Shown here: one piece after another, positions 3,285 through 36,915 of the stretch | Numbering within the stretch: position 1 is the stretch's first letter | Layout: every line of letters starts with the position of its first letter | Sequence record: NC_007023.1 | Origin: Escherichia phage RB43 | Length of the DNA stretch: 64,000 nt | Strand: one strand, 5' to 3' | Program-made: the position numbers and the translations under genes | The notes under the pieces: generated by a model | Databases searched by the model: none | What the model was told of the DNA's origin: nothing | The model's input: the letters and a program-made list of their open reading frames with translations, nothing else

Positions 3285-3360
3285 CTCGTTCCTTTTGTCT
3301 GTTCCGTTTCAACACCCCTAATATACAAAAACCCCTCGCGATATGCAAGGGGGTTTTCGA
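3285..3360 (-). promoter_or_regulatory. PeSL-like element A: sigma70-type early promoter (TTGCAT-17-TATATT) with GC hairpin in spacer
   Basis: minus-strand -35 at 3343-3348, -10 at 3320-3325; hairpin CCCCT...AGGGG; member of 6-copy repeat family. Confidence 0.55.
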
Positions 3361-4004
3361 TTAATTAAACTTATTGTACAGCATGAAGTTTACACCGATT
3401 GAACTTAGGGAGGTACAAGCTCGTTCCAGGTCGTCCGCTTCAATTTCGATAACGAATTTCGTTCGTATTAAAGCTGGCGCGACTTCTTCGACAGAAGGTG
3501 TAGTGACTTCTACGACAGGTTTATATACGTTCTTATCATGATCAGGAACATCATCGAGATACTTCAACATTTGATTGATGTATCGTTTATCTGAGTATAC
3601 AAACCGCTTCGCATTCGTCAGAAGAGAACGCATTTTAGAGCGGGTTGTAACTTTTGTACTTTCTTTGTATCCGCTACTTTCGGTGTTAAGAAAGTTTGGA
3701 TTGCTATCCAGCATAATGATAGACGCTAGATTGTTTTTGTGGAAGTATCCCACGAGTTCATTACGAGACTGAGAGAAACAAGCACATAAGCCTCTTCACC
3801 TACCAGATACATTTGTATATGTACTGGCGCTGTAAACATTTTGTTTATGATTTTATGGAATCGAGTGTTTTCCGATAAACTGCGTTGTCTTGTATAACTT
3901 TTGAAAATGTTATCTTTGACAATGGTCGCCATCGTTTCGATGTGGTTTAGCGATTTCCCAAGTAACGGGTTCAGAAAAACTTCTTTTTTCGGTACATAAG
4001 CCAT
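3361..4004 (-). CDS. hypothetical protein, apparently split by a frameshift (ORFs 3361-3753 and 3726-4004 overlap near an A5 run)
   Basis: Two overlapping same-strand ORFs, both frames open across the junction ~3740-3800. Confidence 0.3.
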
Positions 4005-4020
4005 ATTTCAAATTCTCTTT

Positions 4021-4311
4021 TTAGTGCATGAAAGATTTAACGTACTTCAATATTTCTTCACGACATGTGTCAACGCTTGTGTTTTCGGCAATCATAGCAT
4101 GACAAAGTATCTCACCGTCAAGCCAAAACGTCAGCATGTATTGAATATCACGACCTTCTGTTGCTTCCTGATGATACTTGATTTTCGCGAAAGCAGTTTC
4201 GATACTTTCGGTTACTGTCAACATTTCGGAATCACCATCTACAGCAGCCATTTCCCCAGCTTCTTCGCTGAATTCGCTTTCCAGTTCTTCCCAGTATACT
4301 ATCGTTATCAT
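4021..4311 (-). CDS. hypothetical acidic protein (96 aa)
   Basis: minus ORF preferred over mirror plus ORF 4024-4314 (Phe/Cys-rich, atypical). Confidence 0.4.
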   Translation of the reverse strand: MITIVYWEELESEFSEEAGEMAAVDGDSEMLTVTESIETAFAKIKYHQEATEGRDIQYMLTFWLDGEILCHAMIAENTSVDTCREEILKYVKSFMH

Positions 4312-4444
4312 TGATTACCCCAAACATACTTTACATTTGCATAAAGGGCATTCAGCCTCTTTGATGCGTAGACGTTTCGTTGTTGTCTTCTTCTCCGTAT
4401 TGTGATCATATACATGAAGACAACGGAAGCAGATCACCCAACGT

Positions 4445-4912
4445 TTATCCGTCATAACCGCCACCGCACTTAACCTCACCTTCAATGAACAGTTCGCGGT
4501 TGTCTCTCAAAAGATTGTATTTCTTTTCGAGTTCCGGCCCGAATGCGTCAGCGTCTTCATAATAGCTATAATTATAACAACCGCATTCATCATCCCATTC
4601 AGGTTCATCACCGCGTTCGTTGAAGTGTACGACTTTGAGATCGTCAACTCCAGACTCTTTCATTTTATCCCAGATATACCGGATGTCAACGCTATGGTAA
4701 CTGAATGCTTCAAGGGTGATGTTATCACCATCGATTTGAGGGATACCCCATTTAGGACGTTGGTCATCGGTGATGATATCAAGCAAAGATTCTACGTTTT
4801 CGTGTCCGTAAATCTTCGCGACCTCTTCCTCTTTACCAGGACGAACAAGCCCGATCCCGATAATAAAGCTACTGCTTGAACTGTTACTTACAAAACCAGA
4901 ACGGATCTTCAT
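4445..4912 (-). CDS. hypothetical protein with conserved N-terminal leader MKIRSGFVSNSSSSSF (paralog A)
   Basis: 155 aa; N-terminal 16 aa identical to gene 8362-8844 with synonymous nucleotide differences; acidic W/Y/C-rich C-terminus. Confidence 0.6.
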   Translation of the reverse strand: MKIRSGFVSNSSSSSFIIGIGLVRPGKEEEVAKIYGHENVESLLDIITDDQRPKWGIPQIDGDNITLEAFSYHSVDIRYIWDKMKESGVDDLKVVHFNERGDEPEWDDECGCYNYSYYEDADAFGPELEKKYNLLRDNRELFIEGEVKCGGGYDG

Positions 4913-5100
4913 CGTCTTGCCTCATATTTCGCGTTCTCCGCGATTTTTTCTTGATAGATGTTATATGACATTACCAGAGGCGCAATCGCCACGATAAGCC
5001 CTATAAAGCACACAGAGAACTCACGTTTATTGAAAGCCAGGAACGCAATTGCGCTCCCGACTACAAACACACCTAATGCCAGTAAGAAGAATAGCGTCAT
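4909..5100 (-). CDS. small membrane protein (2 predicted TM helices)
   Basis: 63 aa hydrophobic; ATGA overlap with downstream gene. Confidence 0.5.
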   Translation of the reverse strand: MTLFFLLALGVFVVGSAIAFLAFNKREFSVCFIGLIVAIAPLVMSYNIYQEKIAENAKYEARR

Positions 5101-5714
5101 TTCGGCAACGTGTCCATTTTGCGTGATTTTTCCAACAGGGTGTTGATTACCGTATCCATCGCCTGTTCTGTATCACCATCATGATAGATGATCGCGGTTT
5201 GATGCAAACCTTTCACCAGACGATTAATAATGTACGCCATTTCGGTCGGTAACAGTTTACCCGTTTCGTTGAATTTTTCAAACAGTTTGAACAGTTCTTC
5301 ATTATTCCCTTTCTTACTGAAATTGAAATCGTGCATACCAGACAGAAGACCATCCAGATACAGAACTGTTTTGTTATCAGAGCGGAGGTGTCCACCGATT
5401 TTGTAGTAGTTGCTGAAAACGTATGGCGCTTCACGAACATCATTGATTTCGAAACCAGCATCATCGATATTGCCTACGTGGGAGAAGAAATCCGCATCGT
5501 TATCGAACAGGTTGATCGCGCCTTTCTTGTACGGGAAGCCAGCCAGGTTAATGACTCCCTTTTCATACGCATCATCGTTATCAACGACAACGTATTCAGG
5601 AAGCATAGGGGCATACGGTTTGTTTTTGTCGTGGTTTTCGCGATACGCTAAAGGTTCAGCCAGATAGAGGATATCGCCTTGTTTGACTTCATCCCAAAAG
5701 ATATTACGTGACAT
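5097..5714 (-). CDS. hypothetical protein (~205 aa)
   Basis: Start moved to internal ATG 5712-5714 (RBS GAGGAA) because ORF-track N-terminus overlaps the vWA gene stop. Confidence 0.5.
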   Translation of the reverse strand: MSRNIFWDEVKQGDILYLAEPLAYRENHDKNKPYAPMLPEYVVVDNDDAYEKGVINLAGFPYKKGAINLFDNDADFFSHVGNIDDAGFEINDVREAPYVFSNYYKIGGHLRSDNKTVLYLDGLLSGMHDFNFSKKGNNEELFKLFEKFNETGKLLPTEMAYIINRLVKGLHQTAIIYHDGDTEQAMDTVINTLLEKSRKMDTLPK

Positions 5715-5754
5715 ATTAAATTCCTCAATATGCCCCCTTTCGGGGGCTATTTCA

Positions 5755-7974: not shown

Positions 7975-7984
7975 TTAGTTTTTC

Positions 7985-8221
7985 TCAGTATTTGGATTTG
8001 GTTGTTTTGTGTACATTTAAAATGCTTTGGATTTTTTCGGAAATCGTTTGCTGGTCTGGTTCACATCCCAACTTACCGCCAATCGCCTTGTAAAAATCTT
8101 CAACAGAGCTTACGTTGAAATCCGGCATATGGAAACCTAACGAGTACATATGCGGATTGTGGAATTCGTAAACATCCACATTGTATTCGTTAAGATCGAA
8201 ACGTTCAAGATATTTCTTCAA
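7985..8221 (-). CDS. hypothetical protein (78 aa)
   Basis: ORF in operon context. Confidence 0.45.
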   Translation of the reverse strand: MKKYLERFDLNEYNVDVYEFHNPHMYSLGFHMPDFNVSSVEDFYKAIGGKLGCEPDQQTISEKIQSILNVHKTTKSKY

Positions 8222-8361
8222 AGAAAATAAATCGAACGGTAATGGGAGGTGCTGTTCAATCGTTACAGGTTCCCCCAGCTTGTGCGCTTTCAGGGGTTGC
8301 CCCTTTCGCGTATGTCAGTTCTGTTTTCATCAGTGGTGACTCTTTTGATGTATATTCAAGG

Positions 8362-8844
8362 TTACGGAAAGATGTTTCCATGTTCCAGTTGGGTTCCAAT
8401 CGGGCCGCACTCGTCAGAGTACGTAAACTCGTAGATAAACACGCCGTTTTGATTCCCGTACTTCGTGTTGTATTCTTCATACAGCCACATCTTGATCAGA
8501 GCGTCTTTCTCTTCGGTTTCTAAATCGTACCAATCCCGACCATCATATGCAAGCGCAATTTGCGGATTTGAACGATAACGGGTTTCGGCGCTGTCTTCGG
8601 TTTCCCAATCATAACGCTTATCATCATAATACGATTCAAAGCTATTACCCATGTGACCGCCTAAGTCACGGTGAACGTGTTGAACAACTTCTTCGGATGT
8701 CAGCGGAGGATTATAATAACCGCAATTGGGAGAACAATCACCCATCATTTCGCGAAGGTTGTCGATATCAATCGGATCTTTCGGGAACCGGACGATAAAA
8801 CTACTTGATGAACTATTGCTCACAAAACCAGAACGAATTTTCAT
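8362..8844 (-). CDS. hypothetical protein with conserved N-terminal leader MKIRSGFVSNSSSSSF (paralog B)
   Basis: 160 aa; shares 16-aa N-terminus with 4445-4912. Confidence 0.6.
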   Translation of the reverse strand: MKIRSGFVSNSSSSSFIVRFPKDPIDIDNLREMMGDCSPNCGYYNPPLTSEEVVQHVHRDLGGHMGNSFESYYDDKRYDWETEDSAETRYRSNPQIALAYDGRDWYDLETEEKDALIKMWLYEEYNTKYGNQNGVFIYEFTYSDECGPIGTQLEHGNIFP

Positions 8845-9544: not shown

Positions 9545-9585
9545 AATAAAACCCTCACGAAAAGCCCCTTTCGGGGCTTGATTAA

Positions 9586-9873
9586 TCAGTGTCCGAAGAT
9601 GTGTTTAACAGACTCAGCGAAAGCGTAAAACACCGGATTGTTTTCTTTTAGCATCGCTTCTGATTTCAGAAGATACTCGCTTTTGAACTTAGCACCGAAC
9701 AGGCAGTAAGAAAACGATTTGTCCCAGTAAAAGCAGTTGTAACCACCATCAACAAATCTCACTTCAACCAACAGATAACCCACATCTTCCGGTTTGGTAT
9801 TCGAATAATCTTTCAGAAGATTCGCGCTTACTACTTCGTATGCTTTGCCAGCAACCAAATCGTTATAAGTCAT
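9586..9873 (-). CDS. hypothetical protein (95 aa)
   Basis: ORF preceded by terminator hairpin 9554-9578. Confidence 0.5.
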   Translation of the reverse strand: MTYNDLVAGKAYEVVSANLLKDYSNTKPEDVGYLLVEVRFVDGGYNCFYWDKSFSYCLFGAKFKSEYLLKSEAMLKENNPVFYAFAESVKHIFGH

Positions 9874-9887
9874 GATGTGGTTCCTTT

Positions 9888-10358
9888 TCAGTTTCGTTTC
9901 GATAAAGTTAAGGTATCACTGTTCTTACGAAGATGCAAACACTTTTTTGAAGAATTTGTTTCCGGTCTTTCTTTGTATGGGCGCATGGTCAACCGCTTAC
10001 CGTCCAATACTGTTGGTTTTCCATCCAGTTCAATCAGGATAAAGTTGCCTTTGCGATACTTCAACACGCCCTGGCTTGCCGACCATTCATCGTTATCCCA
10101 GTGGTTGTAATGCCATTCAACAACGGTATCGATTGGTATTTCTGGTTGATTTCTCATATTTGCTTTCCTTCGTTCTGATGCTTCTTTCAATTGTCGTATT
10201 TGTGGTATCAACTGTTGTGGTGGAACAGTATCTTCCCGTTTCAATGCCTTTCGAACTTGATCAACAAACCATTCGTATTTCGGACGGCGGTTAAGTTCTT
10301 CCCTTAGTCGGGCATTCTCTTGTTCGGCAATGCTTGCGCGTTTTCTGTAATCGGTCAT
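9888..10358 (-). CDS. hypothetical protein (156 aa), translationally coupled to methyltransferase
   Basis: 4-nt overlap with dcm-like gene. Confidence 0.45.
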   Translation of the reverse strand: MTDYRKRASIAEQENARLREELNRRPKYEWFVDQVRKALKREDTVPPQQLIPQIRQLKEASERRKANMRNQPEIPIDTVVEWHYNHWDNDEWSASQGVLKYRKGNFILIELDGKPTVLDGKRLTMRPYKERPETNSSKKCLHLRKNSDTLTLSKRN

Positions 10359-11263
10359 AGAACTTTCCTTATCTGTTTGGCTATTGCCTCGATAACTGGC
10401 ACGGAAACGGAGTTACCCGCTTGCTTGTATGCTTGTTTTTTACTCGATGGAATAATAAACGAATCTGGGAAGCCCTGCAAGCGAAAACATTCACGCGGGG
10501 TTAATCGTCGTGGGTTCTTCCCATCCTGTAACACCAGACACTGAACGCCGTCCTTGTAGTATTGCGCTGTGATGGTTCCTGTGTGCGTAGAATCGGCTGT
10601 GACGGCCTGATAACCAAACCCCTTACCGTTTGCCTTATTTCGTTCCTTACGCTCTCTAAAGCCTTTCCACGCGTTATCTGATAGGGTGTACGAATCATCA
10701 ACATCTTCGAGGATATCACCTACGCGCGTAGGGGTGCGCGGGGGAACCGGAAACGAAAAGAATACATCATCCAGGAAGCAGACAATAAACACACGTTCAC
10801 GTCGCTGGGGTAATCCGAAATCTTTCGTATTCAGTCGTTGATAGAATACGTTGTATCCTTCGGCCTCCAGAAGCCCGTAAATCGTTTTAAACGTCTTTCC
10901 CTTGTCATGGGTTAGCAATTCAGGCACATTCTCAAAGAACAGCACACGGGGCTTTTTAGCGCGTATAATGCGGAGGATTTCAAAGAACACCGTACCGCGA
11001 ACATCATCGAAGCCCAGTTTTAATCCGGCTTTACTGAATGCCTGACACGGGAACCCAGCCAACAGGATATCGTGATCAGGTACTTTGTTTTCATCAATGG
11101 CGAACAAGTCACCTTCGAGATTATCACCGCCCCAGTTAGCGGCGTATGTTTGCTGTGCGAATTTGTCGATCTCAGCAGTAAGCACACATTCAACACCGTC
11201 AAATGCGCGATCAAAGCCCATACGAACGCCACCAACGCCAGCGCATAAATCAATCAGTTTCAT
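10355..11263 (-). CDS. DNA (cytosine-5)-methyltransferase, Dcm-like
   Basis: C5-MTase motifs: LCAGVGG (I), GFPCQAFS (IV), ENV (VI), QRRERVFIV (VIII), QGFPDSF. Confidence 0.9.
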   Translation of the reverse strand: MKLIDLCAGVGGVRMGFDRAFDGVECVLTAEIDKFAQQTYAANWGGDNLEGDLFAIDENKVPDHDILLAGFPCQAFSKAGLKLGFDDVRGTVFFEILRIIRAKKPRVLFFENVPELLTHDKGKTFKTIYGLLEAEGYNVFYQRLNTKDFGLPQRRERVFIVCFLDDVFFSFPVPPRTPTRVGDILEDVDDSYTLSDNAWKGFRERKERNKANGKGFGYQAVTADSTHTGTITAQYYKDGVQCLVLQDGKNPRRLTPRECFRLQGFPDSFIIPSSKKQAYKQAGNSVSVPVIEAIAKQIRKVL

Positions 11264-11290
11264 AAATATACCTAAAAAGAGGGTAATAAC

Positions 11291-11992
11291 ATGCTAATAT
11301 CAGCAAGCAGTGTAGACGAATTGAACAGCAAGGTCAACGAAATGCTGTCACAAGGGATGTACTTATGGGGAAGCCCGTTCGTTGTCCCATCCGATTATCT
11401 GAACCAAACACGATTCTTTCAACAGGTTTCAAACGTAAATCCTTCGAGCGGCGGAACCGATGGAAAGAGTGCGTATCAACTATGGGTTGAACAACCAGGC
11501 AATGAAGGGAAAACACTAGATGATTTCTTTGATTCCATTGCAGGGGTTCGCAAAAAATCAGAGGTGTTCTGGACGGGGCTTAGTCTGGTGATCCCAGAGG
11601 ATACGCCGACCAACTTCATCAACCTGATTAAAGGGACCATTCCGACTACCGGAACATTAGAACCGTTCTTCAAAATTACAGACAATAAGTTACACCCGTT
11701 TAACGAAAACTCAACATTAACGTTTAAGCTGAACCTGAAAGGTACTTTCACAGGGGCAACAACCGCACAGCGTAGCGTTACACTTGATTTTGTCGGTACA
11801 CAGGGCAACACCCTCACTCTGAACCGCAGCCAATCGGTAACTACTAGCACCCTTTCTTTCGTCACGTTCTTTAGTGTCGATAAAAACGGAAATATGGTTA
11901 CTAATGGTACTGCATTCAACATTTTCGCAAACGGTAGCCCGTTTACTGTATCCGAAGTTCTTTTAGTCGCCGAACAGCGTACTACTCAATAA
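11291..11992 (+). CDS. putative virion/tail-fiber-like protein (Thr/Asn-rich, GKSAYQLW motif), opposite strand to surrounding early genes
   Basis: 233 aa; GGTDGKSAYQLWVEQ resembles fibre-protein motif; RBS AGAGGG; near-consensus late promoter upstream; bidirectional terminator downstream. Confidence 0.5.
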   Translation: MLISASSVDELNSKVNEMLSQGMYLWGSPFVVPSDYLNQTRFFQQVSNVNPSSGGTDGKSAYQLWVEQPGNEGKTLDDFFDSIAGVRKKSEVFWTGLSLVIPEDTPTNFINLIKGTIPTTGTLEPFFKITDNKLHPFNENSTLTFKLNLKGTFTGATTAQRSVTLDFVGTQGNTLTLNRSQSVTTSTLSFVTFFSVDKNGNMVTNGTAFNIFANGSPFTVSEVLLVAEQRTTQ

Positions 11993-11993
11993 C

Positions 11994-12019
11994 AAAAAAG
12001 CCCCGAAAGGGGCTTTTCT
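11994..12019. terminator. bidirectional rho-independent terminator
   Basis: aaaaagccccGAAAggggcttttc. Confidence 0.6.
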
Positions 12020-12253: not shown

Positions 12254-12280
12254 CTTTCAGGTGTAAAATAATATCGCTCA

Positions 12281-15171: not shown

Positions 15172-15240
15172 GATTATCTCCTTTCGTTTCAGTACCCCTA
15201 ATATAACAAAAGCCCTACACGAATGCAAGGGCTTTTTCAA
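15172..15240 (-). promoter_or_regulatory. PeSL-like element B (TTGCAT-17-TATATT with hairpin AGCCCT...AGGGCT)
   Basis: -35 at 15223-15228, -10 at 15200-15205 (minus strand). Confidence 0.55.
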
Positions 15241-16417: not shown

Positions 16418-16515
16418 TCATAAAACAGACGCAATAATCAATACACCAAGCAAACCGCCAATAAAGCCGAAGAATGACGAAATGAAGATAGACAATATAA
16501 TCTGTTTTATGTTCA
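16418..16515 (-). CDS. possible 32-aa hydrophobic peptide
   Basis: Short ORF MNIKQIILSIFISSFFGFIGGLLGVLIIASVL with weak RBS. Confidence 0.25.
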
Positions 16516-16588
16516 TTGTAGTATTCTCGTTTTAAGAGTCAAGCCCCCAGAACGGGGGCTTTAAAATCTTATTTACGAGAATCGAAAA

Positions 16589-18242: not shown

Positions 18243-18347
18243 AGCAATTCTCTAAGTGCTTACGGATCAACAATAGACCCGTTCCTGTATATATTTATAG
18301 CAAAAAAGGGGCTAAAAGCCCCTTATGTTAAATTAATCTAAAAATAC

Positions 18348-21829: not shown

Positions 21830-21896
21830 AATTTAATCCTCAATGGTTGATGCACACATAATAAAAAAGCCCCTGCAAAAATGCAAGGGCTTTTGA
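21830..21896 (-). promoter_or_regulatory. PeSL-like element F (TTGCAT-17-TATTAT with hairpin GCCCCTGCA...TGCAAGGGC)
   Basis: -35 at 21881-21886, -10 at 21858-21863 (minus strand). Confidence 0.5.
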
Positions 21897-23523: not shown

Positions 23524-23560
23524 ATATTCCTCACGAAAAAAGGGGCCGAAGCCCCCTTTG

Positions 23561-24910
23561 TTAAAAGTTATCTTCGACGAATGCAGCGAGTCGCCCACGA
23601 TATACGGTATCCAGGATCACATGACTTGAATGACCGTACTCTTTAAGTTTTTCAACCGCATACACAAAACCGTTGTTTACGGCAGTGTTGCGCGGGTTGT
23701 CAATCTGTTTAATGTTCCCGCATAGTATCAGAAGTGTGTTCTCACCGCAACGGGAAATGATGGATTTAATTTCGTGATTGCTCAAGTTTTGACATTCATC
23801 AACAATCAGAACGGAACCTTTACCCGGATCAGGATGCCCGATTGAGCGCCCACGGAAGTAATACAGGCTGGGGAACTGTACAACGCCTTTCTCTAACAGC
23901 CCTTCGACGTACTTATCAACTTCCGGTTGATCTTTAAACAGAATGTTCAGGCTTGTAATACATGGTTCAATAGACGGTCGTAATTTTTCTCCCAGTGTAC
24001 CAGGTAAGAACCCGATTTCGCCCGACAGTGGGCTATCCGATTTTACATACATCACATTAGCAAAATGACCAGCATTTACCAGGTGCATAGCACCAGCAAC
24101 CGCCAGCATTGTTTTACCGGAACCAGCCGCGCCCATAATGGTCACTGCATCAATGTTTTTATCCAGAATGGAATCAACGAAAGACGCTTGCAACGCATCG
24201 CGAGGTTGAATTGTTTTCATCAGCTTGCGTTTCATCAGGTGTTCGTGTTTCAACGGCAACACTTCAAGCTGAAACTCTCCAGCATCCACCACACGCCCGA
24301 CAACCTCACCATAGGACAGGATGTATTGGTTAGGGTAGAAATCTACCTTGTAGTCGGCAAACGACGCATAGCTAATCAACGCAATATCGCCATTGTACCC
24401 AACAACATCAACGATGTTCCAGAAGTCGGTCAGTTCAATATAACCGGAATACAGAACATCACTATCTTTCAGTGTGTCATCGCCCGTGTACTGTTCAACA
24501 GGACAACCCTTAGACATTGCGATCAACAACATATTGATATCGCGGGTTACTAAGGTCGCTTTCTCCTGCAAACAGGTAGCGATAATGCGAGCATCTTGCT
24601 TATCAAGCGGGAACTCTTCACCACCGACATAATCGACGATACGCAGAGTAACGCTATCGGGTAAAGCTGGGTTTGTTTGGCCCAACGAAACCCCAGTTTG
24701 GGTAATTGCTTCATACTTCTGTCCCAGGACAATTTTAGACAGAAGTCGGATCACTAAACGTGCTTCGCGGGAAGTGTGTTCCTTTGATTTCAGGTGATCC
24801 AGTTCTTCCATTGTTGCAGCGGTAATGATGATCTCAGTACCAGGGGCAACATAAGAATAGATTGAATATGGGTTCGAGATTAAAACGTTGGTATCTAGAA
24901 CATATTTCAT
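23561..24910 (-). CDS. phoH: PhoH-family ATPase with N-terminal PIN domain (YlaK/PhoH2-like)
   Basis: PIN-like MKYVLDTNVLISNP; Walker A GAAGSGKT; Walker B LIVDECQNL. Confidence 0.85.
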   Translation of the reverse strand: MKYVLDTNVLISNPYSIYSYVAPGTEIIITAATMEELDHLKSKEHTSREARLVIRLLSKIVLGQKYEAITQTGVSLGQTNPALPDSVTLRIVDYVGGEEFPLDKQDARIIATCLQEKATLVTRDINMLLIAMSKGCPVEQYTGDDTLKDSDVLYSGYIELTDFWNIVDVVGYNGDIALISYASFADYKVDFYPNQYILSYGEVVGRVVDAGEFQLEVLPLKHEHLMKRKLMKTIQPRDALQASFVDSILDKNIDAVTIMGAAGSGKTMLAVAGAMHLVNAGHFANVMYVKSDSPLSGEIGFLPGTLGEKLRPSIEPCITSLNILFKDQPEVDKYVEGLLEKGVVQFPSLYYFRGRSIGHPDPGKGSVLIVDECQNLSNHEIKSIISRCGENTLLILCGNIKQIDNPRNTAVNNGFVYAVEKLKEYGHSSHVILDTVYRGRLAAFVEDNF

Positions 24911-29870: not shown

Positions 29871-30055
29871 AATTGAATGTGTGAACGGAATACAGCACGA
29901 GCGGTTACTTCATTATCAAACGGCATTGAAGTACCGGATTTTTCGTTTTCCACGTTAACGCGCCAGAAAGAAGAAATGTCGTTACCTTCAACATACTGAA
30001 ACAGCGTTACAGTTTTGTTTGGTAATTCGCGTTTGTCGATTTCATACTTTTTCAT
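29867..30055 (-). CDS. hypothetical protein (~62 aa)
   Basis: Start moved to internal Met to avoid overlap with upstream gene. Confidence 0.4.
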   Translation of the reverse strand: MKKYEIDKRELPNKTVTLFQYVEGNDISSFWRVNVENEKSGTSMPFDNEVTARAVFRSHIQF

Positions 30056-30314
30056 TTTTGCCACCAAAGCGGGATTGACGTTCTGCCATGAGTTCACGGC
30101 GATAATGTTTAACGTAAACCCCGTTGAGTTTACGCAGTTGTCCGAATACTTTGTTAAACAGGGCTTTCTTCGCCTTGTATTCGTCGGTCATGCGGATAGA
30201 CTCGATGGTCATCCCCATTTCATTTTTCGGATATGCTCTAAGTTCACTTCCTATATCAGAGCACCAGGATTCAAGATAGTCACGCTGGGTTTTGTATTGT
30301 TCAAACGTTAACAT
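30042..30314 (-). CDS. hypothetical protein (90 aa)
   Basis: ORF. Confidence 0.45.
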   Translation of the reverse strand: MLTFEQYKTQRDYLESWCSDIGSELRAYPKNEMGMTIESIRMTDEYKAKKALFNKVFGQLRKLNGVYVKHYRRELMAERQSRFGGKNEKV

Positions 30315-30369
30315 AGTTCACCTCTCCGTTTCTGTATGGGTGTAAGATAACATCATCAAACACCCAGCG

Positions 30370-30549
30370 CAAGCATTATTTGTTGTATTCAAGGAAGAAT
30401 TTAATTGCTTCTTCCGGTGTCATATCATCGGAGAACAAACCAAAGAAAGTACGATGATGATCATTATAGGAAATGTTCAGAGGTTGCAATAAATCCCGAA
30501 CCTGTTCAGCCCATTGGCGATATTTTTTACTAAATGGTTGATTTCTCAT
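30370..30549 (-). CDS. hypothetical protein (59 aa)
   Basis: MRNQPFSKKYRQWAEQVRDLL...; ATGA overlap with upstream gene. Confidence 0.3.
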
Positions 30550-30746
30550 TCTTCCTCTCCTTCCTGTGCGAAGTATTCACACACCGCATCTTCGGGGGTA
30601 CAACCATCAGAGTAAAGGGCATACATGAAATCTTCATCATATGCAGAACTACCCAGCATGTTTTCAACAGAGCGTTTCCATTTGTTGTAATTCTTTTCGC
30701 CCTGGGTTACTTCGTTTTCTGCTTTACACATTTCATACATGTTCAT
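30546..30746 (-). CDS. hypothetical acidic protein (66 aa)
   Basis: ORF. Confidence 0.4.
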   Translation of the reverse strand: MNMYEMCKAENEVTQGEKNYNKWKRSVENMLGSSAYDEDFMYALYSDGCTPEDAVCEYFAQEGEEE

Positions 30747-30892
30747 AAAAATCTCCCAAAATCTTTTGCTACATCTTTCGGATCGGCTTCCAGTTCGTAC
30801 AGTTCACGGGCTAAGGAACTGGGTTTTATATCACGCCCTAAATGGGTGCTAACGTTACGTAACCACTGAATATAGGGATCGAACTTGCTCAT
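30743..30892 (-). CDS. possible 49-aa protein
   Basis: MSKFDPYIQWLRNVSTHLGRDIKPSS...; ATGA couplings. Confidence 0.25.
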   Translation of the reverse strand: MSKFDPYIQWLRNVSTHLGRDIKPSSLARELYELEADPKDVAKDFGRFL

Positions 30893-31050
30893 AACACCAC
30901 CGCATTACCAGACTTTATTGAACGCTCCAGGGATTCAGCAGTGACAGTAAATTCAGGGAACCACACACCGAGATTACTTGACCACCACCAGACATTACCA
31001 CCATCAGTTTTAAATTCAAGATTCAGGTAGTTACTGAAAATGCGTTTCAT
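30889..31050 (-). CDS. hypothetical Trp-rich small protein (~53 aa)
   Basis: Start at ATG 31048-31050 with RBS AAGGGG. Confidence 0.35.
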   Translation of the reverse strand: MKRIFSNYLNLEFKTDGGNVWWWSSNLGVWFPEFTVTAESLERSIKSGNAVVL

Positions 31051-31060
31051 ATTATTCCCC

Positions 31061-31339
31061 TTATGCCATTTTCTTAGCGAGTTTCCAGGCGGCTTTGAAC
31101 GCCGGAACATCGTCAATTTCAATCCAGAAACCAGAACCGAAACCATCATTGTAGCAAGGGCAACCGTCGCAGTAGTTTTCCCAGGTCATCACTTCGCCAC
31201 CAACAGAAGCACCAGTTTCCATCGCACGTAACGCATCTTCAACTTTTTCCAGTTTTTCCGCGTTGTCGTCATAAATGATGAAGTACCATTTGCCGTTGTA
31301 TTCGTTACCCAGTTTGATTGCTTCGCGAACAAGTTTCAT
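31061..31339 (-). CDS. hypothetical protein (~92 aa; CDGCPC motif)
   Basis: Start at MKLVREA just downstream of element C; ORF-track N-terminus is translation of the promoter element. Confidence 0.5.
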   Translation of the reverse strand: MKLVREAIKLGNEYNGKWYFIIYDDNAEKLEKVEDALRAMETGASVGGEVMTWENYCDGCPCYNDGFGSGFWIEIDDVPAFKAAWKLAKKMA

Positions 31340-31412
31340 GATGATTTCCTTTTGTCTGTTTCGTTTCGATGTGTGTAATATAACAAAACCCCTCACCATA
31401 GGCAAGGGGTTT
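31340..31412 (-). promoter_or_regulatory. PeSL-like element C (TTGCCT-17-TATATT with hairpin ACCCCT...AGGGGT)
   Basis: -35 at 31400-31405, -10 at 31377-31382 (minus strand). Confidence 0.55.
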
Positions 31413-31430
31413 CTTTAACAAAAAGTGCTA

Positions 31431-32033
31431 TTACCATCCGTTAGGGTTGCGGAAATGTGTCTGCCAGTAACGCAGTTGTTCGCGGCTCATTTGCTGGGTG
31501 TCAATTACCATGCTATGAATCATTTCTAACATAACACGGGTTTGTGCGACATCCTCCAGGCTCGCTATACGCTGTTTTAAGGCTTCGTTCTCTTTCTCCA
31601 ACTCAACCATACGGTCGTATGCTTTGATGCGCTCCAGTGGCATATCAGGGCGCTCTTTGAGGACACGGGCGCGGGACACTTCACATTCATGATTCGCTTT
31701 CCAGTGTTCAGCCTCTTTGACGGCTTTTTGTTCGTTATGACGTGACATAGAAAGGTCACTAACCAGATCCATAACAGTTTGCGGATCTACGGTTTCAAGG
31801 TAATTCCCCAGATCCGTTTCCCATCCTTTAACCTGTGTCGGACTATCACCATAAGGAACTACATACTGAAATACACGTTTATATTCTTTCCCACTGAATC
31901 CGTAATCTTGATTACCGCGAATAGAACCATTATCAGCAGCAGTCCATTTAGAACCCATCATGTAAGAGACTTTACGCGCCGCCTCAGCAATAGCGCCAAT
32001 TTTCGTATCTTCTAATTTCATTTCATATCCCAT
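31431..32033 (-). CDS. hypothetical protein (200 aa; C-terminal coiled coil)
   Basis: ORF. Confidence 0.5.
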   Translation of the reverse strand: MGYEMKLEDTKIGAIAEAARKVSYMMGSKWTAADNGSIRGNQDYGFSGKEYKRVFQYVVPYGDSPTQVKGWETDLGNYLETVDPQTVMDLVSDLSMSRHNEQKAVKEAEHWKANHECEVSRARVLKERPDMPLERIKAYDRMVELEKENEALKQRIASLEDVAQTRVMLEMIHSMVIDTQQMSREQLRYWQTHFRNPNGW

Positions 32034-32422
32034 AATTCATATTGTGCGCGAAGGATAGCGTACAGGCTACCTATGTGGATCGTGTCTACCGGACACTGGA
32101 ACATATCACTACGCATCATGTTAAACTCAATATCGTTCTGTTCAACGAAGTTGCCGATCATTGATGTCCAGCCCATCACCAGGTTATAGCCGTCCTCCGA
32201 TAACCCGTAAGCCAGCTTAACCATGATACAGCGTTTATCAGCCAGTTCTACGCGCATATGGGTACTGCTATGCGTGACCTTGCTGGGGAATCTGCGGAAC
32301 ATCTTGGTAAGGAGTTTAGCCGTTTCAATATTGAACGCCAGTTCTTGATCCTTACTAACCTGATTATCATGACGACGATCCAGGTATTTTTTCATCTTAG
32401 GGTTAGTGTTCACATGTTGCAT
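32018..32422 (-). CDS. hypothetical protein (134 aa)
   Basis: ORF. Confidence 0.45.
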   Translation of the reverse strand: MQHVNTNPKMKKYLDRRHDNQVSKDQELAFNIETAKLLTKMFRRFPSKVTHSSTHMRVELADKRCIMVKLAYGLSEDGYNLVMGWTSMIGNFVEQNDIEFNMMRSDMFQCPVDTIHIGSLYAILRAQYELWDMK

Positions 32423-32622
32423 AATGTATCCTTAAAACGTTCTTTTCCAGTGCCATTGCATGAACTGCATTTTGGCGATCCGTGGTTATCATACCGACCC
32501 GAACCGTTACATGCAAGACATTTCCGTAATTTCCAACCATACACGAACCGCATATAGTAATCGGTTCGTGCGGCTTTGCGTTCGTGGAAGTTCATACTTT
32601 GCTGTAAACCTGAACCAACCAC
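32410..32622 (-). CDS. small Cys-rich protein with two DnaJ-type CxxCxGxG zinc-finger repeats
   Basis: CLACNGSG ... CSSCNGTG. Confidence 0.45.
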   Translation of the reverse strand: MVGSGLQQSMNFHERKAARTDYYMRFVYGWKLRKCLACNGSGRYDNHGSPKCSSCNGTGKERFKDTLCNM

Positions 32623-32795
32623 ATTTCGATGTTCGGCGCGTAAGTAACGTTTACCATCGGCATAGTGCGGTATTTGTAAGCGGCTTTGTATGCTTCCAGT
32701 TCGGTCGCAACACAGAAAGAGAAACCGTTGTCATAACGTTCTGCGTTAGCAACTTCACAACCAACAACAGCAGCAATGTTTTTGTTCATGTTCAT
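32592..32795 (-). CDS. hypothetical protein (67 aa)
   Basis: Start at MNMNKN downstream of element D. Confidence 0.4.
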   Translation of the reverse strand: MNMNKNIAAVVGCEVANAERYDNGFSFCVATELEAYKAAYKYRTMPMVNVTYAPNIEMWLVQVYSKV

Positions 32796-32870
32796 GATGA
32801 TTTTCCTTTCTCTGTTTCGTTTCGATGTGTGTAATATAACAAAGACCCTGCACGGATGCAAGGGCTTTAA
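32796..32870 (-). promoter_or_regulatory. PeSL-like element D (TTGCAT-17-TATATT with hairpin)
   Basis: -35 at 32856-32861, -10 at 32833-32838 (minus strand). Confidence 0.55.
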
Positions 32871-32875
32871 TGAAA

Positions 32876-33172
32876 TTATTTCGATTCTTTTGGCAATTGT
32901 TCGATAATCGATTGAGTTTGTTTAAGTTCTTCACTCAAATTATTTCGATATGTAGCAAGTTCGCGGATTCTCGCGTTCGCATATGTGATGACCCTTTCCT
33001 CAGTCACCGCATAATGATAACCACCATTAGAAGTAAGTTCCAAACGGTAATTATCCCCCGTTAGGTACTTTGATATGCTGGTACTGTAAAAATACCTTTA
33101 CTGCTTCCAGAAGATTATAGTCTTCTTTACCGATAATAAACTGGTTCGGTTCCATTTCTTCAATATCAGGAT
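32876..33172 (-). CDS. hypothetical protein, apparent frameshift at C5/G5 run (~33051-33055)
   Basis: 41-aa ORF MNPDIEEM...VPNGG continues in another frame as DNYRLELTSNGGYHYAVTEERVITYANARIRELATYRNNLSEELKQTQSIIEQLPKESK. Confidence 0.3.
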
Positions 33173-33709
33173 TCATTTTGTAGCCTTATACATTTCAATT
33201 ACGCGTTTCATGTGCTCTTGTGATTGAGGCACACCAGCGAAGTTCAGTTTAATAAAGAATTCAAGACGATCTTTTTTATTGCATTCATCCAGCCCCAGGG
33301 CAGGTAATGACAGGTTTTCAAAGGCGCGTTGTTCGTGTCGCTGCATATCGTCCCAGAACAGACGGGAACCATCCGGCATAGGAATCCCTATCTCACCTTC
33401 ATAAACCTTGATGATCGTCGTCAATCGTTGTTTGCCGTCGATTACTTCGACCCAGTGAGATTCGTTAAACTCGCTATCAACAGCGATCGCGATAATACCG
33501 CAAGGGAACCCAGTGATCAAAGTTGTCAAGAATTCATCTTGTTCTTTCTGCGTCCACACATAAGGGCGCTGATAGGATGGATTCAGATCCAGATCCTTAT
33601 TTTTCCACCAGTGAATATAACTTCCAACAATGATCGCATGTTCACGGCTTCTGAAAGTTATCTGTTCGCGAATCCGGTTTCTTGCCGGAATATCATCTTT
33701 ATTAGACAT
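33173..33709 (-). CDS. DUF262 / ParB-like nuclease-fold domain protein
   Basis: 178 aa; YQRPYVW and IDGKQRLTT motifs typical of DUF262 (GmrSD N-terminal domain family). Confidence 0.6.
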   Translation of the reverse strand: MSNKDDIPARNRIREQITFRSREHAIIVGSYIHWWKNKDLDLNPSYQRPYVWTQKEQDEFLTTLITGFPCGIIAIAVDSEFNESHWVEVIDGKQRLTTIIKVYEGEIGIPMPDGSRLFWDDMQRHEQRAFENLSLPALGLDECNKKDRLEFFIKLNFAGVPQSQEHMKRVIEMYKATK

Positions 33710-34040
33710 GTTTGACTACCCACATCAATAAACCAGCATTGATAATAGCAAAAGTAGTACAAATCGCAGCATAAACACGCGCATTATGAACGTAGGTTTT
33801 CAGTTCTGCGATCTCTTGATCCTTTTCACTTTCGAACTCTTCACGGGTTCCGTAGTAACCAGGATCAGCAGGAGTAGCAACGCGCACAGCATCTTTTTCG
33901 AATAATGTCGATTTACCATGATCAGGCCCAACAACACCCAAAATGTCACCACGGTCGGTGTTAACGATTCCGTGTGTTCCGGCTTTGGCAAATTTACAAT
34001 CTTTGATTGTGACTACACGATCGCCAGCTTTGTAATTCAT
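33702..34040 (-). CDS. hypothetical protein with C-terminal TM anchor (112 aa)
   Basis: ORF; terminator hairpin 34047-34068 upstream. Confidence 0.5.
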   Translation of the reverse strand: MNYKAGDRVVTIKDCKFAKAGTHGIVNTDRGDILGVVGPDHGKSTLFEKDAVRVATPADPGYYGTREEFESEKDQEIAELKTYVHNARVYAAICTTFAIINAGLLMWVVKHV

Positions 34041-34067
34041 AATATATCCTCAAAGGGGCCGAAGCCC

Positions 34068-34325
34068 CTATTTCGCTTTCTGTTGGAGGTACTCTAACAG
34101 TTTACCTTCTTCCTGCAAAGCAGAAACTTTATTCAGCTTTGCAATGTTCTGGAAATCAGATTGATCGGAATACTCCCAAACACCATCATCAGCAATAATT
34201 GCACCTGCTGATTCTCCGGTATGTGGATTGCGAGTCAATGCCAGCCCCAGGGGATGCAGGATCTCTTTATTGATTTTCCAGAGCAACCCCATTTCAGACA
34301 GAGTATTGAAATCGACGGTTTTCAT
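34068..34325 (-). CDS. hypothetical protein (85 aa)
   Basis: ORF. Confidence 0.45.
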   Translation of the reverse strand: MKTVDFNTLSEMGLLWKINKEILHPLGLALTRNPHTGESAGAIIADDGVWEYSDQSDFQNIAKLNKVSALQEEGKLLEYLQQKAK

Positions 34326-34708
34326 TTTGCAATAATGCCGAAAGCAAGCAAACCACCGCGATGATCGTTATCCGCACTCTCCTGGAAGAAAAAGTATTCA
34401 TCACCGGAAATACTGGTAACACGAACACCTTCTTTCAGATACGGTAACAGATACAGAGGGATCAGCATGATTTCTAAATCATCGCTCCATTTACGGAACC
34501 CCAGATTTTTCATTTCTTCCATCGTCAGGTCATTAGGATCGACGGGTTCAAAATCAGGTGATGCCTGGAGTCGTCCAGGAAGTGAACGTATATGGTTGAG
34601 AGCAAATTCTTCTCCCCATGACTGATACGCGATAGGTTCAGCGGCACGGGTTGCAGTAGCCAACAGAATCATTTGGCAGATTTGGAAAGTCGTTGCTTTT
34701 GTTTTCAT
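34322..34708 (-). CDS. hypothetical protein (128 aa; possible signal peptide)
   Basis: ORF. Confidence 0.45.
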   Translation of the reverse strand: MKTKATTFQICQMILLATATRAAEPIAYQSWGEEFALNHIRSLPGRLQASPDFEPVDPNDLTMEEMKNLGFRKWSDDLEIMLIPLYLLPYLKEGVRVTSISGDEYFFFQESADNDHRGGLLAFGIIAK

Positions 34709-35118
34709 GATGTATATCCCACAAGTTTAGTAAGGAGGTGTCCCATAGTCTTACGCGCATGATCGCGGATTTCGCTATAAGGAACATATTTGAAACCGTC
34801 CATTTCTGTAATGGTTCGACCGTTCTTCACGAACGTTGACGCACAGAAACATTTATCGGCTTCGGGGTAATTATCGCCTTTGTAGATGAACAATGCAAGT
34901 TTTTTCTTACTTGTATAATCCAAAACACCCAGGCTGATCAGTTGGTCAGGACGCACTTCGAAACCAGTTTCTTCGAAGCATTCGCGAATAGCAGCATCAT
35001 ATGGGCTTTCACCCTTTTCTACATGCCCCTTTGGAATATCCCAGTGGGGCGTTTCGGTAGCGTGACCCATTAGAATACTGCCGTTATTCAGAAAGAGAAT
35101 ACCAGCAGATAATTCCAT
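34705..35118 (-). CDS. Nudix hydrolase (MutT/NudE-like)
   Basis: Nudix box GHVEKGESPYDAAIRECFEETGFEV; position comparable to T4 nudE region as I recall it. Confidence 0.85.
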   Translation of the reverse strand: MELSAGILFLNNGSILMGHATETPHWDIPKGHVEKGESPYDAAIRECFEETGFEVRPDQLISLGVLDYTSKKKLALFIYKGDNYPEADKCFCASTFVKNGRTITEMDGFKYVPYSEIRDHARKTMGHLLTKLVGYTS

Positions 35119-35354
35119 TATGCGTTTCCTGAACTAAATTTCTCGTCGTATGCGGAAAGCGCATTATCTGCACGTTTTTTCGCTTCTGTATGTCCACGGC
35201 TATCATTGATACCGCGACGATACATTTCGATCCAGAAAGAACGTCGAGTATCTTCGTTCATTTCGGTCAGTTTAATATCGCGAAATACGTTTTGTTCTTT
35301 GATCAGTCGTGCCAGTTCAGCATCTTGTTCAGTTCTTGATAGTACAGTGTTCAT
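35118..35354 (-). CDS. hypothetical protein (78 aa)
   Basis: ORF. Confidence 0.45.
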   Translation of the reverse strand: MNTVLSRTEQDAELARLIKEQNVFRDIKLTEMNEDTRRSFWIEMYRRGINDSRGHTEAKKRADNALSAYDEKFSSGNA

Positions 35355-35375
35355 AGTTCACCTATTTCTTTCAGT

Positions 35376-35603
35376 TCAGTTTTCAGTTTTTCGAGGAGTG
35401 GATTGGTATTGGATTTGTGAATCACTCAACCGCGCATAGAACAGAGTACGGGTTTCGTTGATTTCAGACAATACCTCTTGATCGAGTTTTTCGATACCCG
35501 CACCGAATGCCATTTGAAACAGAGTTTCAGCAGTTTGCGCGAATCCGTGTTGAAACATTCGATCGAATTTTGGTTCGTATTGTATTAAACGGACACTAGC
35601 CAT
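35376..35603 (-). CDS. hypothetical protein (~75 aa)
   Basis: Start moved to internal Met (MASVRL) to limit overlap. Confidence 0.35.
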   Translation of the reverse strand: MASVRLIQYEPKFDRMFQHGFAQTAETLFQMAFGAGIEKLDQEVLSEINETRTLFYARLSDSQIQYQSTPRKTEN

Positions 35604-35889
35604 AATATTCTTCGTAATCCTCACAATCTGGGAGGTATGTTTCGCAGAACATACAGAGTGTGAAAAATGCGGTTTGGCGAATGCCTGGGTTATCCGGTAG
35701 ATACATCCAGAATGTGTTTGCAAACACAATGAACGTTTTCAGATTTTCAACGGTTACTTCGCTGATACCATCATAACCAGATTGCGCGATCGCTCGCTCC
35801 AGAGGAACAGGATATTGCTGGCAGTAGTCAGCGTAATGTTCACTCGTTACAAGGTCATTAGCGACCTTCACTAAATTGGTGATTTTCAT
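35596..35889 (-). CDS. hypothetical protein (97 aa)
   Basis: ORF. Confidence 0.45.
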   Translation of the reverse strand: MKITNLVKVANDLVTSEHYADYCQQYPVPLERAIAQSGYDGISEVTVENLKTFIVFANTFWMYLPDNPGIRQTAFFTLCMFCETYLPDCEDYEEYYG

Positions 35890-36152
35890 TCAATATACCC
35901 CCAGCGAATCATAATATTATTGTCATCGGCAGGACCGTATACCGAAGGGTACGGATAAACTTCTGCTTTATAAAGATACACGATAGAATGCTTACGCATT
36001 TCATTGATAATATCGCTAAACGTACCTACTGATGTTTTTAGAGGCAGTGCCATTGGATTATCGCTGGTTTCTACTGTTGCTATCGGTCCATCAACCAGGA
36101 TAACACGAACTATCGTATGTTCGGTCAAATAAGCATATATTTTGTTTTTCAT
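35886..36152 (-). CDS. hypothetical protein (88 aa)
   Basis: ORF. Confidence 0.45.
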   Translation of the reverse strand: MKNKIYAYLTEHTIVRVILVDGPIATVETSDNPMALPLKTSVGTFSDIINEMRKHSIVYLYKAEVYPYPSVYGPADDNNIMIRWGYIE

Positions 36153-36469
36153 GCTTTTACGTATTCCACTTTAACAGGTTTTGCGACAAGGCGGTCTTTG
36201 GTGTAACCTTGCCCGTTACAGATATCACACACGTACTTGATATCTTCCATTTGGTCAACCCATCCAGAATCAGGCAAGCCAGAAGGATATGTGTTAACAC
36301 GGCGCACAACATATCCCTTACTTTCGCATTTCGGGCATTTGTGGGGATATTTTGATTTCAGTTCATTGGAGATCTGACGCAGCGTTTTCTCACCGCCGAG
36401 AACGGCGCACATGTGTTCGAGATCTGGAATTCTTAAATCAGCAGCCGTAACCAGGTTGAACTTTGACAT
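36149..36469 (-). CDS. zinc-ribbon protein (~106 aa; CPKCES...CDICNGQG)
   Basis: Start at MSKFN (ATG 36467-36469); ORF-track N-terminus is out-of-frame read of upstream small gene. Confidence 0.45.
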   Translation of the reverse strand: MSKFNLVTAADLRIPDLEHMCAVLGGEKTLRQISNELKSKYPHKCPKCESKGYVVRRVNTYPSGLPDSGWVDQMEDIKYVCDICNGQGYTKDRLVAKPVKVEYVKA

Positions 36470-36479
36470 AATATATTTC

Positions 36480-36620
36480 TCACTTAAAGAATTTTTTGAT
36501 GAAAGATAGGAACAAGCCACCACCGAACATGATCCAGTAACCAGCACCATCGCCATGAAACAAGACATAGACGGCAACACCGTAACAAAATAGTTCTGCA
36601 ATGTTCAGTAAGTTTCTCAT
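36480..36620 (-). CDS. small membrane peptide (46 aa)
   Basis: MRNLLNIAELFCYGVAVYVLFHGDGAGYWIMFGGGLFLSFIKKFFK preceded by strong RBS AGGAGG. Confidence 0.4.
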   Translation of the reverse strand: MRNLLNIAELFCYGVAVYVLFHGDGAGYWIMFGGGLFLSFIKKFFK

Positions 36621-36709
36621 ACCTTCCTCCTTTGTCTACACCAGGTATTTTACCAGAATATAGACCATAGTCAACAACAAAGTTTTATCAACAATACGAT
36701 CGCCTGTCA

Positions 36710-36850
36710 TTAGTAGTCTCCCATAGGTTGAGAAGATGCGACACTCAGAACTTTGAAAGTGCATTTGTTCCACTCACAATAAGTTTTTGCACAGTGAACG
36801 CTACCTTTCATAACAAACCCATTTGAGAAAATAAGCCAGTACAGTTTCAT
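36710..36850 (-). CDS. small Cys-rich protein (~46 aa)
   Basis: Start at MKLYWLIF downstream of element E. Confidence 0.35.
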   Translation of the reverse strand: MKLYWLIFSNGFVMKGSVHCAKTYCEWNKCTFKVLSVASSQPMGDY

Positions 36851-36915
36851 GATTGTCTCCTTTGTTTCAACACCCCCAATATAGCAAAAGCCCCTGCACG
36901 AATGCAAGGGCTTTT
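36851..36915 (-). promoter_or_regulatory. PeSL-like element E (TTGCAT-18-TATATT with hairpin GCCCCTGCA...TGCAAGGGC)
   Basis: -35 at 36902-36907, -10 at 36878-36883 (minus strand). Confidence 0.55.

Follow-up and report, generated by a model that had tools for sequence, protein, structure and literature searches.

Predicted composite terminator-promoter cassettes between the early genes of Escherichia phage RB43

The early region of Escherichia phage RB43 raises the question of what a sequence cassette that recurs between small genes does there. The window studied is the whole stretch of 64,000 nucleotides analysed, positions 1-64000 of which are 64001-128000 of RB43 record AY967407 (offset 64000). 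By megablast, window positions 30000-38000 are 99.9% identical to Pseudotevenvirus RB43, and the distances between the six sites described below are exactly those between six entries of the RB43 early-promoter table in Nolan 2006 (PMC1524935). A minus-strand block at about 2334-39621 is the hyperplastic early region, flanked by gp25 and gp3/dNMP kinase, as seen from synteny with the annotated genomes of Miller, GuL6, Lw1 and GAP161. It contains tk, rI, vs.1, phoH, an endolysin gene, nudE, 57B and dozens of small open reading frames (ORFs). Six minus-strand intergenic sites in this block, E1 to E6, carry one common cassette. Each of these elements is probably a composite transcription punctuation cassette for the RB43 early genes, in which a predicted terminator of the upstream gene overlaps a predicted promoter of the downstream gene.

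The six sites had been pointed out in a first-pass annotation of the same sequence, and all are present where it placed them. A degenerate pattern (CCTTGCNT..GG..TATNNT) matches exactly these six, with 0.12 matches expected from shuffled sequence; a profile hidden Markov model (HMM) built from them finds only these six at E<1e-17 in the window (next match E=0.009); and an independent repeat finder returns them as its top direct-repeat families, D1-D3, E4 and E5 having 78 nt in common at 85% identity. Rfam has zero matches across the whole window at gathering thresholds. All six elements lie between annotated genes, directly after the stop codon of the upstream gene, and the ORFs downstream of them (46-133 aa) are unannotated except for Frd.1. 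The cassettes are given below, one per line; the entries that close each line are from the tables of Nolan 2006 (PMC1524935).

E1, 3282..3360, minus strand: A-tract 3357-3354; hairpin 3352-3332 (CCCCTTGC/GCGAGGGG), -17.8 kcal/mol, z -5.3; -35 TTGCAT 3348-3343; T-run 3331-3327; -10 TATATT 3325-3320; ATG 3281-3279 of a 70-aa ORF; upstream gene stop 3363-3361. Pe:67362 and TransTerm terminator 67332-67352.
E2, 15172..15240, minus strand: hairpin 15232-15212, -13.8 kcal/mol; -35 TTGCAT 15228-15223; extended -10 TGT+TATATT 15205-15200; ATG 15171-15169 of a 61-aa ORF. Pe:79242, score 29, without a TransTerm terminator call.
E3, 21830..21896, minus strand: hairpin 21890-21869 (9 bp, UUUU loop), -20.8 kcal/mol; -35 TTGCAT 21886-21881; -10 TATTAT 21863-21858; ATG 21829-21827 of a 133-aa ORF; upstream gene vs.1. 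Pe:85900 and terminator 85869-85890.
E4, 31340..31430, minus strand: UP-like ATAGCACTTTTTGTTAAAGAAA 31430-31410; hairpin 31409-31389, -18.7 kcal/mol; -35 TTGCCT 31405-31400; TGT+TATATT 31382-31377; leader ACACACATCGAAACGAAACAGACAAAAGGAAATCATC; ATG 31339-31337 of Frd.1 (DUF5417, 92 aa). Pe:95419, score 31.2, the highest RB43 early-promoter score, and terminator 95389-95409.
E5, 32796..32875, minus strand: hairpin 32865-32844 (one C/T mismatch), -12.6 kcal/mol; -35 TTGCAT 32861-32856; TGT+TATATT 32838-32833; leader almost identical to that of E4; ATG 32795-32793 of a 67-aa ORF. Pe:96875.
E6, 36851..36916, minus strand: hairpin 36911-36890 (9 bp, UUCG loop), -20.2 kcal/mol; -35 TTGCAT 36907-36902; 18-nt spacer; TGC+TATATT 36883-36878; ATG 36850-36848 of a 46-aa ORF. 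Pe:100921 and terminator 100890-100911.

Read on the minus strand, each cassette consists of an A-tract, a hairpin, 3-6 T, the -10 hexamer, a leader of 27-38 nt, a ribosome-binding site (AAGGA/GGAG) and the ATG. The T-runs of E1 to E6 are at about 3331-3327, 15211-15208, 21868-21863, 31388-31385, 32843-32841 and 36889-36886. The A-tract (3-6 A) stands directly 5' of the stem in all six. The hairpin has a GC stem of 8-13 bp, with a 5' arm (G/C)CCCTTGC(A), a loop of 3-5 nt and a 3' arm ending GGG(G/C); its folding energy ranges from -12.6 to -20.8 kcal/mol among E1-E6 (z -3.7 to -5.8 against shuffled controls). As the first-pass annotation had read them, the -35 hexamer is TTGCAT in five cassettes and TTGCCT in E4, the -10 hexamer is TATATT except for TATTAT in E3, and the spacer is 17 nt, or 18 nt in E6. 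Its placement of the hairpin in the spacer has to be corrected: the 5' arm starts upstream of the -35 hexamer, which lies within this arm and the loop, and only the 3' arm is in the spacer. A hairpin inside the spacer is the layout of phage RB49.

Conservation of the hairpin was followed in 29 distinct copies, from seven genomes and from other RB43 loci. The stem pairs were read off individual minimum-free-energy folds anchored on CTTG; a MAFFT alignment of the hairpin segments, which was gapless and had misregistered 3' arms, was not used for the counts. The pair at the stem base is G-C in 19 copies and C-G in 10; that at -35 position 5 is A-T in 10, C-G in 5 and G-C in 3; and that at -35 position 4 is C-G in 26, A-T in 2 and T-G in 1. 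Thus, compensatory changes at three stem positions preserve the stem across the 29 copies. Opposite each T of TTG the base is A or G, and opposite its G it is C or T; this gives U.G or G.U wobbles in the sense RNA and A.C mismatches in the antisense RNA. Since the wobbles become mismatches on the other strand, the sense RNA is the more stable one in 27/29 copies (means -18.4 vs -14.5 kcal/mol; Wilcoxon p=2e-6, the copies not being independent).

The hairpin lies upstream of the predicted start of the downstream transcript, so that only polymerase that arrives from the upstream gene would transcribe it; it would thus be a terminator or attenuator of that unit. The sense RNA has a GC-rich stem-loop followed by a U-tract where a transcription unit ends, and by its sequence the hairpin, which overlaps the -35 hexamer, is a predicted intrinsic terminator of the canonical kind. 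TransTerm terminators are tabulated in Nolan 2006 (PMC1524935) at E1, E3, E4 and E6, and the records of Miller and KP15 annotate terminators at sites corresponding to the cassettes. As a separate observation, RB43 isolates differ by a 1-nt indel in the E2 hairpin, which is GTGTAGGGC in the window (15213-15232) and GTGTAAGGGC in the second isolate used here, RB43-GVA (15220-15240); the GuL6 E2 hairpin is GTGTAAGGGC as in RB43-GVA, with a fold of -18.5 kcal/mol vs -13.8 kcal/mol for the window version.

The same bases appear to be under a second constraint. The TTG of the -35 hexamer is invariant, both in the 29-copy set and in the 40 copies over which promoter geometry was scored. Among these 40 copies the spacer is 17-18 nt (16 in one), the -10 hexamer is TATATT or TATTAT, and about two thirds have a TGn extension before it; the -35 matches the sigma70 consensus at 3-5 of 6 positions and the -10 at 5 of 6. 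That TTG stays fixed while its pairing partners drift points to a constraint beyond base pairing, so each element is predicted to hold two overlapping signals, of which the promoter is a separate constraint on the hairpin bases. Copies of the cassette that have no hairpin retain the -35, the -10 and the leader; one is in the window and the other near 9629 in RB43-GVA.

9874..9955, minus strand: hairpin-less relative of the family, with TTGCAT, a 17-nt spacer, TACCTT and leader ATCGAAACGAAACTGAAAAGGAAC, then the ATG of ORF 9586..9873; HMM E=0.009. Pe:73952 in the Nolan 2006 tables (PMC1524935).

At window positions 9893-9901, within this copy, GuL6 and EBPL have an insertion of about 245 nt. 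In the tables of Nolan 2006 (PMC1524935), E1-E6 are all predicted early promoters, with scores (17.4-31.2) among the top ones of RB43. The same paper reports for RB43 a UP-like, A-rich sequence between -40 and -44 and a G at position -33. The E4 stretch TTTTTGTTAAAGAAA resembles an UP element.

A Shine-Dalgarno sequence and an ATG follow every copy, together with a conserved leader, and all copies are intergenic and co-oriented with the downstream gene. The single conserved leader described in the first-pass annotation, GGGGTGTTGAAACG, fits E1, E2 and E6; E4 and E5 have ACACACATCGAAACGAAAC instead, and E3 deviates from both. Its suggestion that ORF callers reading through the elements would yield artefactual N-termini is borne out at E4, where the mechanical ORF 31061..31405 begins at the TTG of the -35 and reads MPMVRGFVILHTSKRN.

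The cassettes have kept their places. In each of the six relatives compared with RB43 (Miller, GuL6, Lw1, GAP161, EBPL and KP15), the syntenic block has exactly six strong copies, at the same junctions, and the E6 stem-loop is identical in 7/7 genomes compared. The ortholog is the closest match for 33/42 of the hairpin modules and for 39/42 of the leader modules; since this holds for most modules, concerted evolution of all copies inside one genome was considered and rejected. Genome-wide, 13 copies with E<1e-7 are present in RB43-GVA, besides a few weaker matches. The seven RB43 copies other than E1-E6 are found between early genes or accessory ones; one adjoins the g43 DNA polymerase block, for which 'PeSL-like sequences' in RB43 had been mentioned by Arbiol et al. 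2010 (PMC2839356). A BLAST search with E4 against isolate phages gave 1012 places in 239 records, with 1-9 places per record among the matches listed; most of these records are Pseudotevenvirus or KP15-like phages of Klebsiella, Enterobacter, Cronobacter and Citrobacter.

Taken as transcription punctuation, a cassette would act as follows. Polymerase from the upstream gene would transcribe the A-tract, the GC stem-loop and the U-tract, and would terminate or be attenuated there. The same DNA would recruit host sigma70 RNA polymerase: the A-rich stretch may serve as an UP element, the invariant TTG of the hairpin 5' arm as the -35, and TATATT, 17-18 nt further on and mostly extended by TGn, as the -10. 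Transcription would restart about 7 nt downstream of the -10 and produce a conserved, unstructured, A-rich leader with the ribosome-binding site of a small early ORF. With a terminator and a promoter in each cassette, the hyperplastic block would thus be cut into short, individually promoted and mutually insulated units. Moreover, some 80-100 nt of near-identical sequence at many gene borders means that the cassettes offer patches for homologous recombination, which, as in the model proposed for promoter-early stem-loops (PeSLs), may make it easier for adjacent ORFs to be gained, lost or exchanged. The punctuation reading is based on the anatomy of the elements, the conservation of the hairpin at the level of RNA, the promoter geometry, the positional conservation and the absence of MotA. 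Actual termination and initiation, early timing and any role in recombination are what we infer from these.

Several points weigh against transcription punctuation. In most copies the -35 matches TTGACA at only 3/6 positions, and a generic scan for sigma70 promoters and terminators recognised E4 alone as a promoter, as TTGCAT reaches a score of 3/6. With 3-6 uninterrupted U the U-tracts are short, those of E2 and E5 included; these two also have weak hairpins without a TransTerm call, so termination may be partial. No 5' or 3' transcript ends of RB43 or a close relative were found in the searchable literature, and promoter and terminator activity of the RB43 elements is predicted from their sequence. 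In addition, the KP15 GenBank record names the orthologous motif 'putative middle promoter; discovered using MEME'. This label, together with the superficial likeness of the weak TTGCAT to the TGCTT of a Mot box, would make the elements middle-mode promoters activated by a phage factor, which is highly improbable. The KP15 paper does not give an experimental basis for the label. The Mot box consensus is (a/t)(a/t)(a/t)TGCTTtA, followed by N11-13 and a -10 (Nolan 2006, PMC1524935); the RB43 motif is CTTGCAT. From the G of TTG to the -10 there are 20 nt, as in sigma70 promoters; for a Mot box it would be about 17 nt. No MotA homologue is detectable in RB43 (T4 MotA, tblastn best E=2.6, vs 3e-108 for a gp52 control), on which account the middle-promoter reading was rejected; in Nolan 2006 (PMC1524935), MotA is reported only from T4, RB69 and 44RR. 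Without MotA and with sigma70 spacing, early transcription by host polymerase is the best reading. Nor is it at all likely that the elements are plain intrinsic terminators, the promoter-like hexamers being a by-product of a hairpin with a T-rich tail. The window does contain promoter-less intergenic hairpins of the AAAGCCCC-loop-GGGGCTTTT style (e.g. 11995-12017 and 40515-40546), and Miller annotates only terminators at the cassette sites. This reading leaves unexplained why TTG is invariant while its partners drift, why 40 copies conserve the -10, a spacing of 17-18 nt and TGn, and why the hairpin-less copies (9874-9955 and that near 9629 in RB43-GVA) retain -35, -10 and leader. Every cassette copy has a conserved leader and a Shine-Dalgarno sequence, whereas the plain terminators have none of these features.

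The remaining alternative is that the cassettes are primarily recombination modules, in which homologous or site-specific exchange between copies cuts out and inserts units of PeSL plus ORF, possibly via mini-circles, with transcription control secondary. We hold this to be possible but rather unlikely. It was assessed by chained blastn of window positions 1-41000 against the six relatives; breakpoints were those of indel type within 30 nt of 83 minus-strand gene junctions, with the following numbers.

Family-cassette junctions: breakpoint in at least one relative at 5/6.
Other long intergenic junctions: breakpoint in at least one relative at 6/16.
Tight junctions (under 40 nt): breakpoint in at least one relative at 26/61.

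EBPL and KP15 lack the upstream neighbour gene of E1, and the breakpoint falls at the hairpin base; Miller, GAP161 and EBPL lack an 85-nt segment directly upstream of E2; and in Miller, Lw1 and KP15 the upstream neighbour gene of E5 has been replaced. In GuL6, E4 is kept at 96% identity with an unrelated ORF behind it, and KP15 is 94% identical to RB43 from the E4 hairpin through to the stop of Frd.1, between flanks of about 75%. Hairpin alleles have been swapped at orthologous sites: E1 of GAP161 and EBPL has the E2-type allele, and E5 of Miller and Lw1 has the allele of the RB43 copy near 11070. To this can be added a siphophage cassette with the same upstream motif, -10 and leader as E4 (see below), and the mini-circles demonstrated for RB49 and phi1 (PMC2839356). 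Yet the excess of breakpoints at cassette junctions (5/6 vs 32/77 at the others) is not significant (one-sided Fisher p=0.059, n=6, the lineages not being independent), it falls to 4/6 when the weak E3 call is left out, and breakpoints are also found at 26/61 tight junctions that have no cassette. An origin of the indel of about 240 nt at the E4 edge by exchange between two PeSLs was rejected, since all that was found at the indel was a microhomology of 4 nt and one cassette. Deletion between E4 and E5, which are 1456 bp apart, was seen in none of the six relatives, despite the 85% identity over 78 nt; every relative has all six elements in their places; and most modules are nearest to their own ortholog. 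Since the orthologs are closest, the E4-E5 interval is never lost and the E4-edge indel is not inter-cassette, the elements appear to be mainly stable regulatory fixtures, inherited as positional orthologs. The idea in the first-pass annotation that the elements drive modular gene shuffling is thus weakly supported: breakpoints abut five of the six, but with p=0.059 against other junctions, and the positions are mostly stable. As to a role in recombination, the sequence comparisons are no more than suggestive, and the elements may have a facilitating one.

A variant of this idea concerns E4. Its unit consists of ATAGCACTTTTTGTTAAA anchored on a stop codon, the hairpin, the -10, leader CATCGAAACGAAACAGACAAAAGG and the Frd.1 gene. 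The E4 cassette with Frd.1 recurs in Webervirus siphophages of Klebsiella (Drexlerviridae), e.g. Klebsiella phage P1 (MZ598515). The unit was compared between window 31061-31430, minus strand, and 362-735 of a piece of MZ598515, and the leader motif with 736-807 (piece coordinates). In the Webervirus cassette the upstream ATAGCACTTTTTGTTAAA is identical to that of E4, the -10 and the leader are near-identical, and the hairpin, which lacks the TTG of the -35, is followed by TGCTATTAT. The ORF behind it is 71% identical to RB43 Frd.1, where T4-type Frd.1 has about 47%. A 71%-identical Frd.1 with the same upstream sequence and leader points to cross-family exchange of the whole expression unit. 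Perhaps, then, the cassette is a horizontally mobile expression unit that crosses phage families, with exchange between the RB43 and KP15 lineages at 94% identity; we put this forward as a tentative proposal.

How do the RB43 elements compare with known systems? PeSLs were defined for RB49 and phi1 by Arbiol et al. 2010 (PMC2839356) and extended to PST/T4 and nt-1/KVP40 by Comeau et al. 2014 (PMC4122927). They are defined as intergenic elements that combine a promoter of sigma70 type (spacer of about 17 nt) with a stable stem-loop, have AT-rich sequence on the upstream side, extend from the stop of one gene to the Shine-Dalgarno sequence and start of the next, typically a small ORF without known function, and lie preferentially in hyperplastic regions; one of five subclasses has a stem-loop overlapping the -35 (PMC2839356). 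All of these sequence features are present in the family in the early, hyperplastic block, as the likeness to PeSLs noted in the first-pass annotation would have it, and as far as sequence goes the RB43 elements belong to the subclass with the stem-loop over the -35. Like PeSLs of RB49 and phi1, they are present in many copies, mostly in hyperplastic regions, with about 80-100 nt conserved, and they have in common with those of RB49 the initial-transcribed motif ACAC(A/C)CAT(A)CCGAAACGAA. The RB49 PeSL, a near-consensus promoter with the layout TTGACA-GGGGATC..GATCCCC-TATAAT, has a GGGG-loop-CCCC hairpin wholly in the spacer between -35 and -10 and no U-tract, whereas the RB43 elements have a C-run-first hairpin over the weaker -35 TTGCAT, A- and U-tracts, and a -10 TATATT often with TGn. 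There are about 13 copies in RB43 vs about 51 in RB49, and the RB43 profile HMM has a weak match in RB49 (114000-124000), to the leader only (E=0.004). Cassettes of RB49 and phi1 have been shown by experiment to promote and to terminate transcription, and mini-circles have been demonstrated (PMC2839356); promoter, terminator and mini-circle activities are thus experimental for RB49 and phi1, whereas the RB43 elements are known as sequences.

The tables of Nolan 2006 (PMC1524935) list the same six loci, with promoters and terminators separately; their overlap, a common family, covariation and the leader are not described in the passages and tables examined. Both halves of the element were thus tabulated in 2006 and the composite class has been known since 2010; the RB43 elements are a more terminator-like PeSL, and the evidence on shuffling given here stays within what the PeSL papers proposed. 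The 'morons' of lambdoid phages, like the RB43 units, are small accessory ORFs with their own promoter and a border terminator, and the E4+Frd.1 unit is present in unrelated phage families. The differences are that in RB43 the terminator and the promoter of the next unit are fused into one element, and that, according to Nolan 2006 (PMC1524935), novel ORFs of T4-like phages match the rest of the genome in GC and are not host-derived.

The initial-transcribed motif is of interest in its own right. In the form (A/T)CA(C/T)(A/C)CAT(A)CCGAAAC(G/C)A it follows the -10 in early cassettes of RB43-, RB49- and T1-like phages, the -35 and hairpin layouts of which are unrelated despite it. Instead of marking shared ancestry, this 'CATCGAAACGA' motif could have a function of its own, e.g. 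in promoter escape, in mRNA stability or in translation; either such a function or a common ancestry of the leaders would account for it.

For annotation, the cassettes would show where at least six small early genes really begin in phages of the RB43 group, among which are many therapy candidates against Klebsiella, Enterobacter, Cronobacter and Citrobacter, and they explain spurious TTG-extended ORFs such as 31061..31405. They would also be an example of overlapping codes, in that one stretch of 50 nt is under simultaneous selection as a terminator (as RNA) and as a promoter (as DNA). If the role in recombination is real, the elements help to account for the movement of accessory genes, both inside a phage family and from one family to another.

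Other terminators and composite elements are present in the window. The weak HMM matches at 40515-40546, between convergent genes, and at 48253-48300 were rejected as family members; they are ordinary terminators without the family -35, -10 or leader. At 16515-16565 (minus strand), upstream of a short unannotated stretch before an SPFH-domain gene, a hairpin GCCCCCGTTCTGGGGGC adjoins TTGACT, a 16-nt spacer and TACAAT; this resembles a PeSL in which the stem-loop precedes the -35, and it is outside the six-member family. At 18290-18332 (minus strand), between rI and the next ORF, a terminator hairpin AAGGGGCUUUUAGCCCCUU and its U-tract run straight into TGCTATAAA, an extended -10 with no recognisable -35; here, too, a terminator may be fused to a promoter. 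Plain terminators make up a second family, distinct from the promoter-bearing one, with GGGGC-loop-GCCCC followed by TTTTTT on the minus strand at 589-619, 18302-18332, 23536-23566 and 38094-38124.

Two further loci adjoin variable segments or genes. The intergenic promoter-like region at 30314-30386 (minus strand; TTGCGC..TGTTATCTT), Pe:94386 in the tables of Nolan 2006 (PMC1524935), has a hairpin TGGGTGT..ACACCCA that spans the -10, and in Miller, GuL6 and GAP161 its junction borders the variable segment 30376-31061. The lone plus-strand gene 11291-11992 (window 11264-12019), annotated as 'tail needle knob' in Miller and absent from KP15, Lw1, GAP161 and EBPL, is bounded by a divergent promoter region and a bidirectional terminator at 11996-12017.

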